Assembly: GCA_038133485.1 (NCBI GenBank)
Contig: JAYPTH010000001.1
Span: forward strand, 33,474-97,473
Reading direction: 5' to 3'
DNA: 64,000 nucleotides
From: Gammaproteobacteria bacterium
GTDB taxonomy: Bacteria > Pseudomonadota > Gammaproteobacteria > Magnimaribacterales > TMED112
In this document: positions 5,637 through 38,383 of the stretch, one piece after another
How the letters are laid out: each line of letters begins with the position of its first letter
Numbering within the stretch: position 1 is the first letter of the stretch
Made by a program: the position numbers and the translations under genes
The notes under the pieces: model-generated
Told to the model about the DNA's origin: nothing
What the model saw: the letters and a program-made list of their open reading frames with translations, nothing else
The model's database searches: none

Positions 5637-5773
5637 CTTAATAGCCAAAATAGAAAGATTCCCACAATAAACCCTTCAAACCATGAATACCACATCAAAC
5701 CATAGTGATCTATACCCATTAGTTTCATAAAATCTTCAGCAATTTTTTTGTGCCACTTAATAAAACTATTCAT
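5633..5773 (-). CDS. 46-aa small membrane protein, translationally coupled to qor (hypothetical)
   Basis: My own translation is MNSFIKWHKKIAEDFMKLMGIDHYGLMWYSWFEGFIVGIFLFWLLS. Its start shares a TAATG junction with the qor stop. It has a C-terminal TM helix. It is below the ORF-track cut-off. Confidence 0.4.
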   Translation of the reverse strand: MNSFIKWHKKIAEDFMKLMGIDHYGLMWYSWFEGFIVGIFLFWLLS

Positions 5774-6777
5774 TATGAATCATTAATCAGCACAACTTTT
5801 CCAGTGACTCCTCTGTTTCCGATCAGATTTATTGCACTGATAGCATCTTTCATCTTAAAGGTTTGTGAAATAAAAGGGTTGAGTGTGCCTTCAGCGACCA
5901 TTTTATTTAAAGCCTTAATATTTGAGTGGTTCTCTTCAGGCTGGAGTCCCGTAAAAGTGCCCCAAAAGACCCCATTAATTGATGCCCCCTTTAGTAATGC
6001 AAGATTGAGTGGCATTTTGGGTATTTCCCCAGCCGCAAATCCAATTACCAGATACCTTCCTTTCCAGCCAATAGCTCTAAATGCTGGCTCAGCATAACAA
6101 TCACCAATAGGGTCAAAAATAATATCATATCCATTTTTAGTGCTTTTACTTTTTAATTCAGATGAAAAAGATTTCTGCCCATCCTTGTCCAATTTTTCTG
6201 ATCCATAAACAACAACTTCATCGGCACCATAATCTTTACATATTTTGGCCTTTTCTTTACTTGAAACTCCTGCAACAACTCGAGCACCCAAGGCTTTAGC
6301 AATATCAATAGCAGCTAATCCAACTCCACCGGATCCACCAAGAACCAAAATCTCATCATCTTTTTGTGTTTGCCCCCTTTGCACAAGGGCATGATAACTT
6401 GTTCCATAAGCCAACTGATAAGAGGCAGCAATCTCAAAAGAAATATCATCTTGGATTTTAAAAACTAAATTTTCATCAAGAGAAATTTCTTCAGCAAAAG
6501 CTCCGACTATTGACATAAAATAGACCCTGTCACCAATTTTGTGTTTTGTAACGTTTTCCCCTATTTTCTTTATGACCCCAGAACCTTCATTGCCCGGTGT
6601 AAAAGGTAGCGGCGGCTGAAACTGATATAAGCCTTGTACTATCAAGTAGTCTGGAAAGTTTAAGGCAGCCGCTTTGACCTCTATCACAACTTCATTTGGT
6701 TGTGGCTCCAAGCTCTCACCATGCTCCCAGACAAGGTTTTCAACTGGACCAAAATCTTTGCAAACAATTTTATTCAT
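5773..6777 (-). CDS. qor: NADPH:quinone oxidoreductase / MDR-family zinc-type dehydrogenase
   Basis: Contains the 'GGSGGVGLAAIDIAKALGA' Rossmann motif. The GroES-like N-terminal domain pattern is also present. Confidence 0.8.
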   Translation of the reverse strand: MNKIVCKDFGPVENLVWEHGESLEPQPNEVVIEVKAAALNFPDYLIVQGLYQFQPPLPFTPGNEGSGVIKKIGENVTKHKIGDRVYFMSIVGAFAEEISLDENLVFKIQDDISFEIAASYQLAYGTSYHALVQRGQTQKDDEILVLGGSGGVGLAAIDIAKALGARVVAGVSSKEKAKICKDYGADEVVVYGSEKLDKDGQKSFSSELKSKSTKNGYDIIFDPIGDCYAEPAFRAIGWKGRYLVIGFAAGEIPKMPLNLALLKGASINGVFWGTFTGLQPEENHSNIKALNKMVAEGTLNPFISQTFKMKDAISAINLIGNRGVTGKVVLINDS

Positions 6778-8261
6778 TTTGTCTCTCCTCTAAAGTTTTT
6801 TAGAAACTCATCAAACCCTATCTTATCTTTAGAGAGATGGTCATCAAACTTTTTTAAGGACTCAAGGCTCTCTTGCATAAATAATTCCTGTAACTCAGAG
6901 TTTATTTCAATTTCAATAGGAAGAGATTTGGTTTTAACAAAATTAATTATCCCATCGCACGCTAAAATCTCTTCAATTACTCTTTCAGACAATGGTTTTT
7001 CATTTCTTCTTTTTAGTTCAACAATCATCTCATCAAAATTTTCATTGATTTGAGATTTATTTAAAACTTGCTCAAGTCTATTTAAAAATTCGTTAGTAAT
7101 TGTTTTTATTGAAGCTTCACTTTTCGCATCTTCATAACTGGTTATAAGATTACAATCTTGTCCTCTTTCAGATGCTCTTCTAATATTTTCTTTAATAATT
7201 TCAGCTTCTATTGCATTAATTTCCGGTGATTCACAAATAGTGCAATAGAACGTAAATGCTTCCCAAAATAAAAGATCGTTTGCTGACACCCCAATATCAG
7301 AAAAAGGGTTGAGGTCGATGGATCTAATTTCTAAATAATCTATCCCACCACTTTCTAATTGAATAAATTGACGTAAGTTTGGCTGCTTAGCTTTAGGCCT
7401 AATGTGGTTATATAACTCGCTCTCCATCTGAATAGTGCCTGTATTAACTTGTTGGTAGTCAGGGGCAGATGATGGGATATTAGAAAACTTTTTATTTGGC
7501 TTGTTAATATATTCACGCATGATATCTAGGTAGCCATCAAGAGAATTAAAATCTATAAAATTCTTTTCCTGTTCTTCTGAATAGTAGCCAAGCCTGCTTA
7601 CTCTTAGGGAGGTCGCTTTAGGCAAATAGCAGTTATTTTCACCTATTTGTTCAACATGCAAGTCTCTCCCTTTTAAGAATGAGCAATGTGTAACAGGAGA
7701 ACAGCCTGTTAATCTTAGTGCGATTGGGAAGAGTCTCAATAAGTTTCTTGCAACCCCAAGATAAAATTGATTCTTTTCCTCTGCCAAGTTTTTTAAATAG
7801 GTTTCAGAAAAAGAAATATTAAAGTGAATCCCTGCTGTGCTTTGCATTTTATCTCCATACCTATTTCTTAAACCCAATCTATATAAGTATGCTAGCTTTG
7901 ATTTGTTCGTAACACCTGCTTTGGGCAGAGTTATTACATCTTCCTTGAAAATAGGGGGCATAGAATAATTCCACAAATAATCACCATCAAGATTTTGCTG
8001 GACGTAAAAATGCAATTGGGATAAAAAGTTATATAGATCATCATTATTTTCAAAGGTAGGCGTAATAAGCTCTAAATGAGGTTCTGAGTAATCTAGAGTT
8101 ACATAATTATTGAAATGATGACTACCAAGTGATTTGGGGTAGGATTTATCCGATATTTCTGCAAAGCTATTTGCTCTTAGATTTTCTTTTTCTAAACCTT
8201 TTGTAATTGTTTTATCGGAACTAAGAAAAGCCCCAACCCTAGTTTGGCTTGGTAATATCAT
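6774..8261 (-). CDS. gshA: Glutamate--cysteine ligase
   Basis: 'HFNISFSE', 'RVSRLGY' and 'YLEIRSIDLNPF' resemble E. coli-type GshA. Its length is about 495 aa. Confidence 0.85.
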   Translation of the reverse strand: MILPSQTRVGAFLSSDKTITKGLEKENLRANSFAEISDKSYPKSLGSHHFNNYVTLDYSEPHLELITPTFENNDDLYNFLSQLHFYVQQNLDGDYLWNYSMPPIFKEDVITLPKAGVTNKSKLAYLYRLGLRNRYGDKMQSTAGIHFNISFSETYLKNLAEEKNQFYLGVARNLLRLFPIALRLTGCSPVTHCSFLKGRDLHVEQIGENNCYLPKATSLRVSRLGYYSEEQEKNFIDFNSLDGYLDIMREYINKPNKKFSNIPSSAPDYQQVNTGTIQMESELYNHIRPKAKQPNLRQFIQLESGGIDYLEIRSIDLNPFSDIGVSANDLLFWEAFTFYCTICESPEINAIEAEIIKENIRRASERGQDCNLITSYEDAKSEASIKTITNEFLNRLEQVLNKSQINENFDEMIVELKRRNEKPLSERVIEEILACDGIINFVKTKSLPIEIEINSELQELFMQESLESLKKFDDHLSKDKIGFDEFLKNFRGETK

Positions 8262-30650: not shown

Positions 30651-30652
30651 AA

Positions 30653-30970
30653 TCAGTTCTTAGTCGAAATATTTAAAGGGAAATGTGCAATATTTTTGGG
30701 GTCTGCTTTTGATATTTTTGATTTACCAAGTTCTGTAACTTCATCAATTCGTATAATGGAATTAATTGGAACATAGGTTCTTTTGACACCATTGAATTCA
30801 GTTTTTAGCTTTTCTTCTGAAGTGTCGACCACAAGACTTGAACTTGTATCAAAAATATAATCCTCAATTTCAACAAAACCATAGAGATCACTTTGATATA
30901 TATTCTTTGCAAATATTTCGTATACTTCCCCTACTTGAATAAATTTAATTTTATAAATTTTTTGCTTCAC
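30653..30970 (-). CDS. DUF1820-like small protein
   Basis: A 105-aa protein with an N-terminal 'YKIKFIQVGEVYEIFAK...' and a position divergent from miaB. The family assignment is from memory only. Confidence 0.5.
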   Translation of the reverse strand: MKQKIYKIKFIQVGEVYEIFAKNIYQSDLYGFVEIEDYIFDTSSSLVVDTSEEKLKTEFNGVKRTYVPINSIIRIDEVTELGKSKISKADPKNIAHFPLNISTKN

Positions 30971-30981
30971 AATAAGAATAT

Positions 30982-33248: not shown

Positions 33249-33696
33249 TTCTGTAACTATTGAATTACATAATTACCCTAAGCAATTAAGCTTTGTGAAA
33301 GATTCATTAGAGGATATTGTGATTAAATTTAAAAATTATTTTGAGATTAAAGAAATTTTTTCTGAAATTAGTTTCATATCAAAAGAACAAATTAAAGAAA
33401 TTAATAAAAAATTTCGCAACATAGATAAAGCAACAAATGTGCTTACGTTCCCAAGCCAAGAATTAAAGCGTATGACTAATAATTGCCATGGTGAGATATT
33501 GATATGCATGGAGGTATTAGAACAAGAGAGTATTGCTCAAGATAAAAAAATTGAAAACCATTTTTTTCACTTACTAATTCATTCGTTTATGCACTTACTA
33601 GGATACATGCATGATAAAGAAGATGATGCTATATTAATGGAAAGTAGAGAAATTGAATTTTTGGCTAATATCGGAGTAGATAATCCTTACAAATAA
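33232..33696 (+). CDS. ybeY: rRNA maturation endoribonuclease YbeY
   Basis: Contains 'HLLIHSFMHLLGYMH', the H..H......H zinc motif. Confidence 0.85.
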   Translation: MIISSDSVTIELHNYPKQLSFVKDSLEDIVIKFKNYFEIKEIFSEISFISKEQIKEINKKFRNIDKATNVLTFPSQELKRMTNNCHGEILICMEVLEQESIAQDKKIENHFFHLLIHSFMHLLGYMHDKEDDAILMESREIEFLANIGVDNPYK

Positions 33697-36243: not shown

Positions 36244-36317
36244 GAAGATATAAAAAATATTTATATTAATTTATAAAAAATATTGATATTACTTCAAAAA
36301 CATATAATATTGTTTAT

Positions 36318-36388
36318 CTAAGTCAGTCTCTCCTCTCCCCCATGACTGGCACTTATGGGGCTTCGGCCCCATTTTTTAGGAAGAGATT
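36318..36388 (+). promoter_or_regulatory. Structured GC-rich leader (candidate attenuator, riboregulator or short sRNA) ahead of the small ORF and gpx
   Basis: Stem GUCAGUC (36322-28) pairs with GACUGGC (36344-50) around the 15-nt loop UCUCCUCUCCCCCAU. This is followed by a UUCG terminator hairpin. A possible promoter is TTGATA (36283-88) with TATAAT (36303-08) or TAATAT (36305-10). The 5' end is approximate. Confidence 0.4.
36357..36377 (+). terminator. Rho-independent terminator hairpin GGGGC-UUCG-GCCCC followed by AUUUUUU
   Basis: Read directly: a 5-bp all-GC stem, a UUCG tetraloop and a 6-U tract. It is one of only two clear intrinsic terminators in the window. Confidence 0.7.
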
Positions 36389-36514
36389 ATGGAAAATATT
36401 TTTAATTTTTTTAGGTTGGGCGATATGAGAGAGAAGATTTCTGATTCATTTGAGCTTGTGGTACTATGCCTTATATTTTTAATATTATTGTTGGGCATAT
36501 CACCTAATGGCTAA
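36389..36514 (+). CDS. 41-aa small membrane protein (hypothetical), coupled to gpx
   Basis: My own translation is MENIFNFFRLGDMREKISDSFELVVLCLIFLILLLGISPNG. The SD AGGAAGAG ends 5 nt before the ATG. Its stop overlaps the gpx start (AATGGCTAA). It has a C-terminal TM helix. Confidence 0.35.
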   Translation: MENIFNFFRLGDMREKISDSFELVVLCLIFLILLLGISPNG

Positions 36515-37040
36515 ACACCTACTGTCTTTATTATTATTTGTTGCAGTCGACATACTGGCTGACTGCCCAGATTTGCTAAACGAAGACGTCAAAATTCTAA
36601 ACAAACAAGAGTTTAAAAATCTTTGTGAGTACAAAGATAAAACAATTTTAGTGGTAAACACTGCAAGCAAGTGTGGGTTTACCTACCAGTATGAGCAATT
36701 AGAGGACTTATATAGAGAATTTAGTACTAAGGGGCTTGTTGTTTTAGGTTTCCCATCAAGAAATTTTCTTTACCAGGAATTTGATGATGAGGGAGAGGTT
36801 GCAGAATTTTGTCAAACAAATTTCGATATTACTTTTCCACTCTTTTCACTTACTAATGTAGGAGCAGCCAATACAAGTTCGTTCTATAAAAAGCTATTCA
36901 AGGAAACACAAGAAAGACCAAAATGGAACTTCCATAAGTACTTAATAAAACCCAACGGTGAAGTAAAAAGTTTCTCTCACAAACTTGATCCACAAGATCC
37001 TATTATTGTTCAGGCGATTCTAGACTCTATTAATTCGTAG
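36507..37040 (+). CDS. gpx: Glutathione peroxidase (Cys-type), with signal peptide
   Basis: Contains the 'NTASKCGFT' active-site motif, 'LGFPSRNF', and 'WNFHKYLI'. Confidence 0.9.
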   Translation: MAKHLLSLLLFVAVDILADCPDLLNEDVKILNKQEFKNLCEYKDKTILVVNTASKCGFTYQYEQLEDLYREFSTKGLVVLGFPSRNFLYQEFDDEGEVAEFCQTNFDITFPLFSLTNVGAANTSSFYKKLFKETQERPKWNFHKYLIKPNGEVKSFSHKLDPQDPIIVQAILDSINS

Positions 37041-37684
37041 TGATTATCATGACCAATGATCACTGTATTAGGCTTATTCTCTGCAAATATTCCGACTTCT
37101 AAAATCCCATCTATAGCATTAATTTTTTTTTCAAGCTCTAATGGATTGGCGACCAACACGCCTCTCAGGTCTAAAAGAATGTTGCCACTATCAGACAAAG
37201 AGTTTCGACGCATAATTTGTGGAAAATCATCATTTAGCGAAGTAATAACTCTATCTATTTTTGTTTCACAGACCTCAACAGGAATACCAAACTTGCCAAG
37301 CATATGTACTTGTTTTGAATTGTCAGCGATACAAATAAAGTATTTAGAATGTTTAGTAAGTTTTTTTTCTAATAAATGTGCTCCGCCTCCGCCCTTAATT
37401 AAATTTAACTCTGGATCTATTTCATCTGCTCCATCTACATAGATATCTAGACATTTTGTATTCGGCAATGTTTTCTCAACCTTAATACCCAAGCTTTCAA
37501 CAAGTTCAGTTGTTCTTATTGAGCTTGAATAAATTAGATCAATTCTATCTTTTAGTTTGGGAAGAAAATTTTTAGTAAAGAGGTCCGTAGTGCTCCCAGT
37601 ACCTAGACCTAAAACAAAATTTTCAACATTCATTTCAATAATTTTATTAAAGGCGCCTTTAGCAGCATTAAGTTTTTTATTCAT
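37010..37684 (-). CDS. rpiA: Ribose-5-phosphate isomerase A
   Basis: Contains 'GLGTGSTT', 'DGADEID' and 'KGGGGA'. Its 3' end overlaps the gpx 3' end by 31 nt. Confidence 0.92.
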   Translation of the reverse strand: MNKKLNAAKGAFNKIIEMNVENFVLGLGTGSTTDLFTKNFLPKLKDRIDLIYSSSIRTTELVESLGIKVEKTLPNTKCLDIYVDGADEIDPELNLIKGGGGAHLLEKKLTKHSKYFICIADNSKQVHMLGKFGIPVEVCETKIDRVITSLNDDFPQIMRRNSLSDSGNILLDLRGVLVANPLELEKKINAIDGILEVGIFAENKPNTVIIGHDNHYELIESRIA

Positions 37685-38225
37685 AGATATTTTGATCAGT
37701 AATAATTTTATCTAATCTTATATCAGTTTTATTTTGAAATGGATAATCTTGCAATTGGAAATCATAACCAACGCCCCATAATTTTGGCCTGTATCTTGAT
37801 CTCTTGATATTTTGAAATAATTTATCGAAATAGCCTTTACCATAACCAATTCTGTACAAACTTAGATTAAAGGCCACCAACGGCACAATAATAATATTAA
37901 GTTGGGAGAGATTTATATGGTCTGCTTTGTTGGGTTCTAGGATGTTAAACTTGCCTCTCTTAAAGCATTTGGAAATTCTGCAGAATTTGATTTTATCTTT
38001 AATAATTTTCGGGGTTGCATATTTTTTTCTCGGATGAAAAAAGATCATAGGCTCATTTCTCGTTGACATAAAGGTCCCAATATTCTTGCTTTTCACGAAT
38101 GCACTTTCAGCAAATAATTTTTGATTGATTTTTTTTGAAAGAATAAGTTTTTGGCTATAGGTAAGTTCTAATCTTTTATCTAAGGATTTTTGTCTTATTT
38201 CTAATTTTGATGGCATCTGAATCAT
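37677..38225 (-). CDS. ygfA: 5-formyltetrahydrofolate cyclo-ligase (YgfA)
   Basis: Contains the 'GYGKGYFDK' motif. It lies immediately downstream of 6S RNA, as in E. coli ssrS-ygfA. Confidence 0.8.
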   Translation of the reverse strand: MIQMPSKLEIRQKSLDKRLELTYSQKLILSKKINQKLFAESAFVKSKNIGTFMSTRNEPMIFFHPRKKYATPKIIKDKIKFCRISKCFKRGKFNILEPNKADHINLSQLNIIIVPLVAFNLSLYRIGYGKGYFDKLFQNIKRSRYRPKLWGVGYDFQLQDYPFQNKTDIRLDKIITDQNIYE

Positions 38226-38383
38226 AGTTTACAGTCACCCTGAACCCTTAAGGTCAGGTGGGCAGCTCATTTATAAAGTAAGGCTTCCTTTAAAAGTATT
38301 GCACAGCTAAATAAACTCTGCTTCCCTATATTTACAATATCGGTTCTAGAGTAAATTCTGAAAACCAATGATCCAGATAGAAT
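38214..38383 (-). ncRNA. ssrS: 6S RNA (SsrS); ends approximate
   Basis: The zapA-ssrS-ygfA synteny is present. Minus-strand 'CACCUGACCUUAAGGGUUCAGGGUGACUGU', 'GAACCGAUAUU' and 'GGAAGCCUUA' resemble E. coli 6S segments recalled from memory. A closing helix forms between AUCUGGAUCAU (38378-68) and AUGAUUCAGAU (38225-15). A -10-like TATATT lies at 38390-85. Confidence 0.8.

Follow-up and report, generated by a model that had tools for sequence, protein, structure and literature searches.

The stretch of DNA analyzed here (64,000 nucleotides (nt), positions 33,474 to 97,473 of contig JAYPTH010000001.1; hereafter the window) stems from a SAR86 bacterium (Magnimaribacterales) and carries a two-hairpin element between an L,D-transpeptidase gene (ldt) and a glutathione peroxidase gene (gpx). 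Sequence comparison identifies this element as a structured RNA family, previously undescribed and specific to SAR86. It is very probable that the element is a real RNA and the leader of an operon that contains gpx and an unannotated small open reading frame (ORF), smORF-B. Its function, as far as can be judged from sequence, is probably regulatory; as its main job we favor, with slightly less than even confidence, a docking site that acts in cis.

A covariance model built from 30 sequence variants matched the whole element at 36318–36384 on the plus strand (78.1 bits, E = 4.7e-19). Hairpin 1 (36322–36350, +) pairs GUCAGUC (36322–28) with GACUGGC (36344–50), seven base pairs including one U-G, around a loop of 15 nt (36329–43, UCUCCUCUCCCCCAU), precisely as a first-pass annotation of the window had described it. 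The loop is C/U-rich and resembles an anti-Shine-Dalgarno (anti-SD) sequence; together, the 5′ arm and most of the loop form an invariant core of 21 nt, AGTCAGTCTCTCCTCTCCCCC = AGUCAGUCUCUCCUCUCCCCC (36321–36341, +). Hairpin 2 (36355–36372, +; AUGGGGC-UUCG-GCCCCAU) has seven base pairs, five of them G-C, and runs into a T6 tract (36372–36377, +), so that the site resembles an intrinsic terminator in the lineage of the window. The minimum free energy of the 60-nt core 36318–36377 was −22.3 kcal/mol, as compared to −12.1 ± 2.4 for shuffled sequences (z = −4.25; none of 200 was as good), and the corresponding structure consisted of exactly these two hairpins. A wider stretch of 91 nt (36310–36400) was unremarkable (z = −1.24). 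The G+C island that had drawn attention to the region is indeed conspicuous: over 50 nt, it ranks third in a window of 34.5% GC, equal to a tRNA. Hairpin 2 heads the list of terminator-like sites between 30 and 45 kb and has the most G-C pairs among them. An ORF running through the element from an ATG at 36342 was rejected since this ATG is not conserved.

Relatives were sampled in two ways. An unbiased set comprised the DNA around Ldt homologues of 59–100% identity (Lnt, 41–100%) and represented eight distinct lineages. A second set came from metagenomes, in which the 18-mer CAGTCTCTCCTCTCCCCC picked out 102 stretches; about 66 of them contained the full element, the contigs concerned yielding 57 sequence variants, and the rest were unrelated G+C-rich sequences. 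All eight protein-retrieved lineages showed the order lnt-ldt-gap-gpx-rpiA, each with one element on the same strand and with an identical 21-nt core. Mean identity within this set was 87% for the element, 66% for ldt and gpx DNA, 58% for the upstream region and 38% for the spacer in front of gpx; the element appears to be under strong purifying selection. On all contigs that were long enough, it lay about 80–100 nt past ldt and 160–330 nt ahead of gpx, on the same strand. The 18-mer search pattern itself demands 18 of the 21 core nt, so that in the metagenome set part of the invariance seen in the 5′ arm and loop is imposed by the search. Hairpin 2, by contrast, lies outside the pattern, so that the invariance of its core is unbiased. 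The covariance model found a single copy in the window, with a runner-up match of 10.8 bits, and, across 485 kb of SAR86 loci, one at each locus. It found no element near 80 distant Gpx genes. The best matches listed in a genome scan based on Gpx were 39–53% identical proteins of Beta- and Gammaproteobacteria, none with the element, and viral contigs searched with the 18-mer gave no match.

In an alignment of 30 sequences, hairpin 1 was paired in 100% of the cells. Its changes were solely from U-A to U-G, at two positions and in 6 of the 30 sequences. On the opposite strand these changes produce A·C mismatches, which indicates that the molecule under selection is the plus-strand RNA. This bears on the idea that GTCAGTC-N(13-17)-GACTGAC acts at the DNA level, as an operator on which a repressor would sit immediately past the promoter. 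Most lineages do have a perfect inverted repeat there, overlapping the transcription start. The six variant sequences, however, pair only as plus-strand RNA, via U-G, and not as a DNA palindrome, the spacing of the half-sites varies by up to 3 bp, and neither the invariant asymmetric C/T spacer nor the adjacent conserved hairpin 2 would be explained. An operator was rejected because of the variable spacing and the U-G wobbles, and we regard it as very unlikely.

In hairpin 2, the core GGGGC/GCCCC was invariant over the same alignment, the tetraloop was always YNCG (UUCG, UACG, CACG, CUCG or UCCG) and the lower stem covaried, with five pairs changed on both sides (A-U to U-A, C-G to A-U). None of 500 shuffles reached the observed covariation score, and versions with slid partners scored lower. 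RNAalifold independently returned the same two helices. Covariation in both stems, which had been proposed as a check, was thus found for the lower stem of hairpin 2 but not for hairpin 1. The total loop of hairpin 1 measures 13–17 nt, with a variable 3′ part, and the linker between the hairpins 1–6 nt; 13 C/U-rich loop bases are invariant. The importance attached to this loop from the outset was borne out, as it is the most conserved part of the element. In thermodynamic folding, both hairpins had a probability of about 1 in most lineages, the loop was unpaired in most lineages and the start-codon region was largely open.

At the gathering threshold, Rfam 15 reported nothing at the element in the window; a permissive search around it gave junk matches only (E = 2.8–5.7, far under gathering). 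Among 11 relatives, searched at E ≤ 5, Rfam returned 6S RNA and a chance U6 match (E = 2.9, 18.9 bits against a gathering score of 44), and nothing at the element. The initial impression that no known family is involved therefore stands for the window and these relatives, and we found no such element described for SAR86 in the literature consulted. Dupont et al. placed an "abundant non-coding RNA" in SAR86 genomes, in a carbon-assimilation region (PMC3358033). We considered whether this might be the same element, but it is probably a different one, since the neighbors here are housekeeping genes.

Directly upstream of the element, a predicted sigma-70-type promoter is conserved. In the window it consists of a −35 hexamer TTGATA (36283–36288, +) and a −10 hexamer TAATAT (36305–36310, +), separated by 16 nt. 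TTGATA followed after 16–17 nt by TATTAT or TAATAT was found in 49 of 65 distinct upstream variants, and either of the two −10 hexamers in 60 of the 65, ending 8–12 nt before the stem. One clade (L089) has a variant −35, and its −10 ends 5 nt before the stem. The promoter proposed in the first-pass annotation is thereby retained in the form of TTGATA and TAATAT, whereas the alternative −10, TATAAT at 36303–08, lies only 14 nt from the −35. The transcript would start at about 36317–36319, 0–5 nt before hairpin 1.

A promoter at a fixed distance before the hairpins argues against the element being a mere terminator of the lnt-ldt transcript, with hairpin 1 present by chance. Such a terminator could account for the fact that hairpin 2 with its T6 is the first terminator-like site past ldt in the window, and that no other hairpin occurs from the ldt stop to the promoter. 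It would not account for a conserved promoter that separates ldt from the hairpins, for the U-tract being missing in most lineages with both hairpins kept, or for hairpin 1 being the most conserved part of the element. As the sole explanation, which the first-pass annotation had named as a possible refutation of its own proposal, lnt-ldt termination is contradicted, and we hold it to be extremely improbable.

On its downstream side, the 263-nt gap that harbors the element had been described as the only long intergenic gap of the window, upstream of gpx. It is not the only one, nor is it free of coding sequence. The gap holds a conserved small ORF that had been overlooked, smORF-B (36389–36514, +), which puts the element upstream of this ORF and not directly upstream of gpx. 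Two other gaps, 30651–30981 (331 nt, 28% GC, upstream of miaB) and 1729–1956 (228 nt), are likewise ORF-free at a cut-off of at least 45 amino acids (aa). The gene order around the element is thus ldt, element, small ORF, gpx. smORF-B has 41 aa in the window, 27–33 aa in most relatives and 27–41 aa overall, and its stop overlaps the gpx start (ATGGCTAA). It was intact in 57 of 57 distinct nucleotide variants, and its codon-position entropy (15.4/4.7/30.6) is the signature of a coding sequence. We predict a real coding gene for a membrane peptide, whose acidic N-terminus leads into a single hydrophobic helix (...ELxxLxxIFxxLxxGIS; consensus M[DE]KF..N[IF]EL.ILF.IF.VL.LGIS). In three clades, a second small ORF of 34–35 aa, smORF-A, is inserted between hairpin 2 and smORF-B, with the pattern M..Y..NL..F...YP.....FF..G..IGEIY (L092:3002–3109 and L093:3042–3146; also in the clades of L108, L125 and L131). 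It is absent from the window; the sister clade of the window has an apparent remnant of it, ATTGGAGAGG. Pfam and NCBIfam hold no family for either small ORF, the 41-aa smORF-B had no match among 1.84 billion representative proteins, and both ORFs are skipped by gene callers.

In every lineage, the first small ORF begins 10–25 nt past hairpin 2. This leaves no space for a promoter before the start codon and makes the element part of the smORF-gpx mRNA. With its own promoter upstream and its genes on the same strand, it has the features of a 5′ leader of the inferred transcript, in which gpx is the final gene of a leader-smORF-gpx unit. A promoter-like sequence, TTGAGC-16-TATATT, occurs within smORF-B (36450–36477, +), about 23 nt upstream of the gpx start. 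It overlaps conserved codons and, if active, could give rise to a leader-independent gpx transcript.

In the window, hairpin 2 has the form of an intrinsic terminator, a G+C-rich stem-loop followed by a U-tract, and the terminator annotated at 36357–77 is present there. As a family feature it did not hold up. A T-run follows hairpin 2 in 22 of 56 variants and is absent in 34, so that it has been lost at most orthologous positions, which is not the conservation expected of a selected terminator; the T-runs of close relatives of the window are already interrupted. All 12 variants scored with an extra small ORF after the hairpin have the T-run, as do 10 of the remaining 44. The earlier proposal of a terminated small RNA (sRNA) of about 60 nt, or of an attenuator, consequently fits the lineage of the window but not the majority of variants. 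With intrinsic terminators and attenuators the element shares, in the window, a G+C-rich stem, a stable tetraloop and six U between promoter and first start; it differs from them in the loss of the U-tract elsewhere and in a stem core that is invariant instead of freely covarying, and from attenuators further in having no supported antiterminator and no leader peptide inside.

The first-pass annotation had also pointed out an antiterminator-like geometry, in which CCCCAU (36338–43) pairs with AUGGGG (36355–60). In a switch between terminator and antiterminator, be it a riboswitch or a protein attenuator, the GGGG arm of hairpin 2 would be contested by its own 3′ arm and by the CCCC(AU) of the loop, the outcome being set by whatever ligand or protein occupies hairpin 1. 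The geometry does exist in the window, CCCC:GGGG pairing is possible in 30 of 30 aligned sequences, and the contrast between an invariant GGGGC/GCCCC with two partners and a covarying lower stem with a single partner may be a weak hint of mutually exclusive helices. However, the pairs flanking CCCC:GGGG are broken in 15–18 of 26 sequences, and the alternative helix shows no covariation, the CCCC:GGGG pairs being invariant and hence beyond covariation testing. The fold with hairpins 1 and 2 has a probability of about 1, most variants have no U-tract and therefore nothing to antiterminate, and so small a structure offers little room for a ligand pocket. Moreover, those lineages whose terminators are best have linkers of 1–2 nt, too short for a pseudoknot as long as hairpin 1 stays intact; an H-type pseudoknot was rejected for this reason. 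A switch of this kind is in our opinion unlikely.

The loop can pair within the leader in the window, where UCUCUCCU (36327–34) and the purine-rich, SD-like AGGAAGAGA of smORF-B (36378–36386, +) form eight base pairs with one bulged A. This anti-SD pairing in cis, noted at the outset, is predicted only for the window and its clade, where the loop pairs with the start region at a probability of 0.36–1.0. In 15 of 20 representative lineages, this probability falls to about 0. Nor does the loop have a conserved cis partner in the rest of the operon mRNA, neither position nor strength of the pairings being conserved. An RNA thermometer, which had also been suggested, is at odds with an SD that lies outside both hairpins.

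Hairpins at the 5′ terminus of an mRNA may also act passively. Stabilizer hairpins such as that of the ompA 5′ untranslated region (UTR) are not known to depend on a particular loop sequence. In the same manner, the two terminal hairpins of the present element could protect the mRNA as a stabilizer or insulator and keep an SD-poor start open, with no partner involved. That they begin only a few nt from the predicted 5′ end and that the start-codon region is largely unstructured agrees with this, and both have stable hairpins at the very start of the mRNA, ahead of a single-stranded region where the ribosome binds. Yet the element, unlike ompA-type stabilizers, keeps 13 invariant loop bases across deep divergence, and a passive role leaves the invariance of these bases, of the stem and of the hairpin 2 core unexplained next to neighboring genes of 66% identity. 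We consider it quite improbable that this is all the element does.

An invariant single-stranded loop with no conserved partner in cis could instead serve a target in trans. The leader would then be a trans-acting or dual-function sRNA whose C/U-rich seed pairs with the purine-rich SDs of other mRNAs, released either by termination at hairpin 2, in the lineage of the window, or by processing in the A/U-rich spacer; read-through would produce the smORF-gpx mRNA. There is precedent for such a mode of action. CcsR RNAs present anti-SD loops (CCUCCUCCC), derive from the 5′ or 3′ UTR of a small ORF with which they are co-transcribed, and have a role in oxidative stress and the glutathione pool (PMC8034643). 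RoxS/RsaE act through C-rich regions (PMC4409812), and their unpaired C-rich motifs pair with G-rich SDs in redox-related regulation, with terminator hairpins present (PMC4409812, PMC6158497). In the lineage of the window, moreover, a strong promoter and a canonical terminator predict a discrete RNA of about 60 nt.

The comparison with these RNAs has its limits. With the CcsR or "Cuckoo" RNAs of Alphaproteobacteria (CcsR1-4 of Rhodobacter, NfeR/ar14 of Sinorhizobium), the SAR86 element has in common a displayed, C/U-rich, anti-SD-like hairpin loop, the association with a small ORF, here 10–25 nt downstream, and the link to oxidative stress and glutathione. Cuckoo RNAs, however, have two hairpins each with CCUCCUCCC, whereas the SAR86 element has one C/U-rich loop (CUCCUCUCCCCC), which as UCUCCUCUCCCCC is inexact, and a second loop of UUCG or UACG. 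They are often multi-copy and adjoin DUF1127 ORFs (the CIN1 neighborhood), whereas the element is single-copy and its adjacent small ORFs encode hydrophobic peptides that match no Pfam or NCBIfam family. Their hosts are Alphaproteobacteria; that of the element is SAR86, where it has no Rfam match. With RsaE/RoxS of Firmicutes, the element shares an unpaired C-rich motif of the anti-SD type, but those RNAs belong to a different phylum, have sRNA genes of their own, measure about 100 nt and contain several C-rich regions, whereas the element forms a 5′ leader and lacks a conserved terminator. As defining features of both groups are missing, the element may be said to work like them, not to belong to them.

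A scan for targets in trans covered the 64 kb of the window and about 0.5 Mb more, mostly of the same locus, and found no conserved target. One site in the window stood out: AGAGGAGAGAC (6781–6791, −) is a perfect complement of 11 bp to GUCUCUCCUCU of the element. It forms the SD of an NADPH:quinone reductase gene (qor, ORF 5773–6777), and this gene overlaps the end of gshA, which encodes glutamate-cysteine ligase. This match to the loop, just downstream of gshA, would suit an sRNA, and its proximity to gshA made it attractive. In three other lineages, however, the site is a generic SD of the GGAG/GGGGAG type that pairs in shifting registers, and qor was dropped as a target because it is not specifically conserved. 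The best non-self match in the window (about 1149–1160) falls inside the coding sequence of coxC and was dismissed for that reason, and a weak match that recurs in the closing stem of 6S RNA was treated as noise. The lnt coding sequence of one clade contains, on the same strand, AUAGAGGAGAGAUUGGCU, a complement of 14–16 bp to the 5′ arm and loop (about 750 nt upstream in L183; also in L103, L148 and L186). Being absent from the window and from other clades, this match was likewise regarded as noise. Further points speak against an sRNA: the missing U-tract in the majority of variants, and a strictly single copy that always lies 10–25 nt from the same start codon. A trans-acting RNA is the chief rival of the reading that we favor, albeit with a rather low probability.

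It is this strict linkage to one start codon, together with the fact that most lineages have lost the terminator, that leads us to favor docking in cis. The transcript would begin at the sigma-70-type promoter (36283–36310), 0–5 nt before hairpin 1, which keeps its 13-nt invariant anti-SD-like loop single-stranded. Hairpin 2 forms an extremely stable GGGGC-YNCG-GCCCC clamp, and the two 5′-terminal hairpins may shield the mRNA from decay that depends on the 5′ end. The loop and the sequence-constrained stem would serve as docking site for a trans-acting partner, either a protein or a purine-rich RNA. Bound at the 5′ end, beside the zone where ribosomes load, this partner could tune the stability of the mRNA and the translation of the small ORF and gpx. 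In lineages with a U-tract, including that of the window, hairpin 2 would end many transcripts as an RNA of about 60 nt, and the partner could also tune read-through at this point.

Several points weigh against docking in cis. The partner is hypothetical, and the 5′ end, the 3′ end and the expression of the RNA are predicted from sequence. Part of the invariance of arm and loop was built into the metagenome set, with only eight lineages being unbiased, and the occurrence of the element is known from the sampled SAR86 lineages only. A regulatory function is probable, not certain, even though a passive stabilizer would not need an invariant loop, and the canonical terminator in the lineage of the window would fit a stand-alone small RNA equally well.

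The surroundings of the element are largely those of housekeeping genes. Upstream lie miaB-phoH-ybeY-corC-lnt-ldt; downstream follow gpx and then, on the other strand, rpiA, 5-formyl-THF cyclo-ligase, 6S RNA, a ZapA-like ORF, an SDR gene, cca, ksgA, pdxA and surA. From the ldt stop to the −35 hexamer extends an A/T-rich block (36244–36282, +) of about 10–12% GC that relatives share (...TTTATTTATAAAAACTA); it may serve as an UP element or as a binding site for a regulator. The gpx gene itself (36507–37040, +; PF00255 GSHPx; NCBIfam PRK10606, E = 1.7e-36) encodes an N-terminal signal peptide that ends in Cys (...ILADC in the window; YSC, SAC or FPC in relatives), which suggests that the enzyme is periplasmic and possibly lipid-anchored. 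The convergent rpiA (37010–37684, −) overlaps the 3′ end of gpx by 31 nt, and no terminator separates the two genes. The 6S RNA (38210–38382, −) scored 47.1 bits, as compared to the Rfam gathering score of 46.4. Its orthologues in relatives reached 28–43.5 bits and thus fall under this score, so that SAR86 6S RNAs would escape standard annotation.

SAR86 is among the most abundant bacterial groups of the surface ocean, sunlit and proteorhodopsin-bearing; to our knowledge, almost nothing is known about its gene regulation. The Ldt homologues that served to retrieve relatives are marine, and NCBI labels one cluster of them "SAR86 cluster bacterium". The group now forms the order Magnimaribacterales, with four families and genomes of 1.05–1.66 Mb and 31–40% GC, and its first isolate is recent (PMC11582366).

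In conclusion, SAR86 has an element that is conserved near the level of rRNA, and its position ahead of a probably periplasmic glutathione peroxidase and of one or two predicted membrane peptides that lack annotation suggests that peroxide defense is controlled post-transcriptionally. It supplies three handles, namely a covariance model, a promoter and a loop that can be mutated, and adds two families of small proteins overlooked by gene callers. Tentatively, one may also envisage a riboregulator common to all SAR86, in which an ultraconserved C/U-rich seed of 20 nt from the 5′ end of the peroxide-defense operon would pair with purine-rich ribosome-binding sites elsewhere in the streamlined genomes and couple oxidative stress to the translation of a regulon. 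If this were true, the regulon could include genes of glutathione or quinone redox metabolism, and the order Magnimaribacterales, abundant but barely cultured, would have its first defined functional regulatory RNA.

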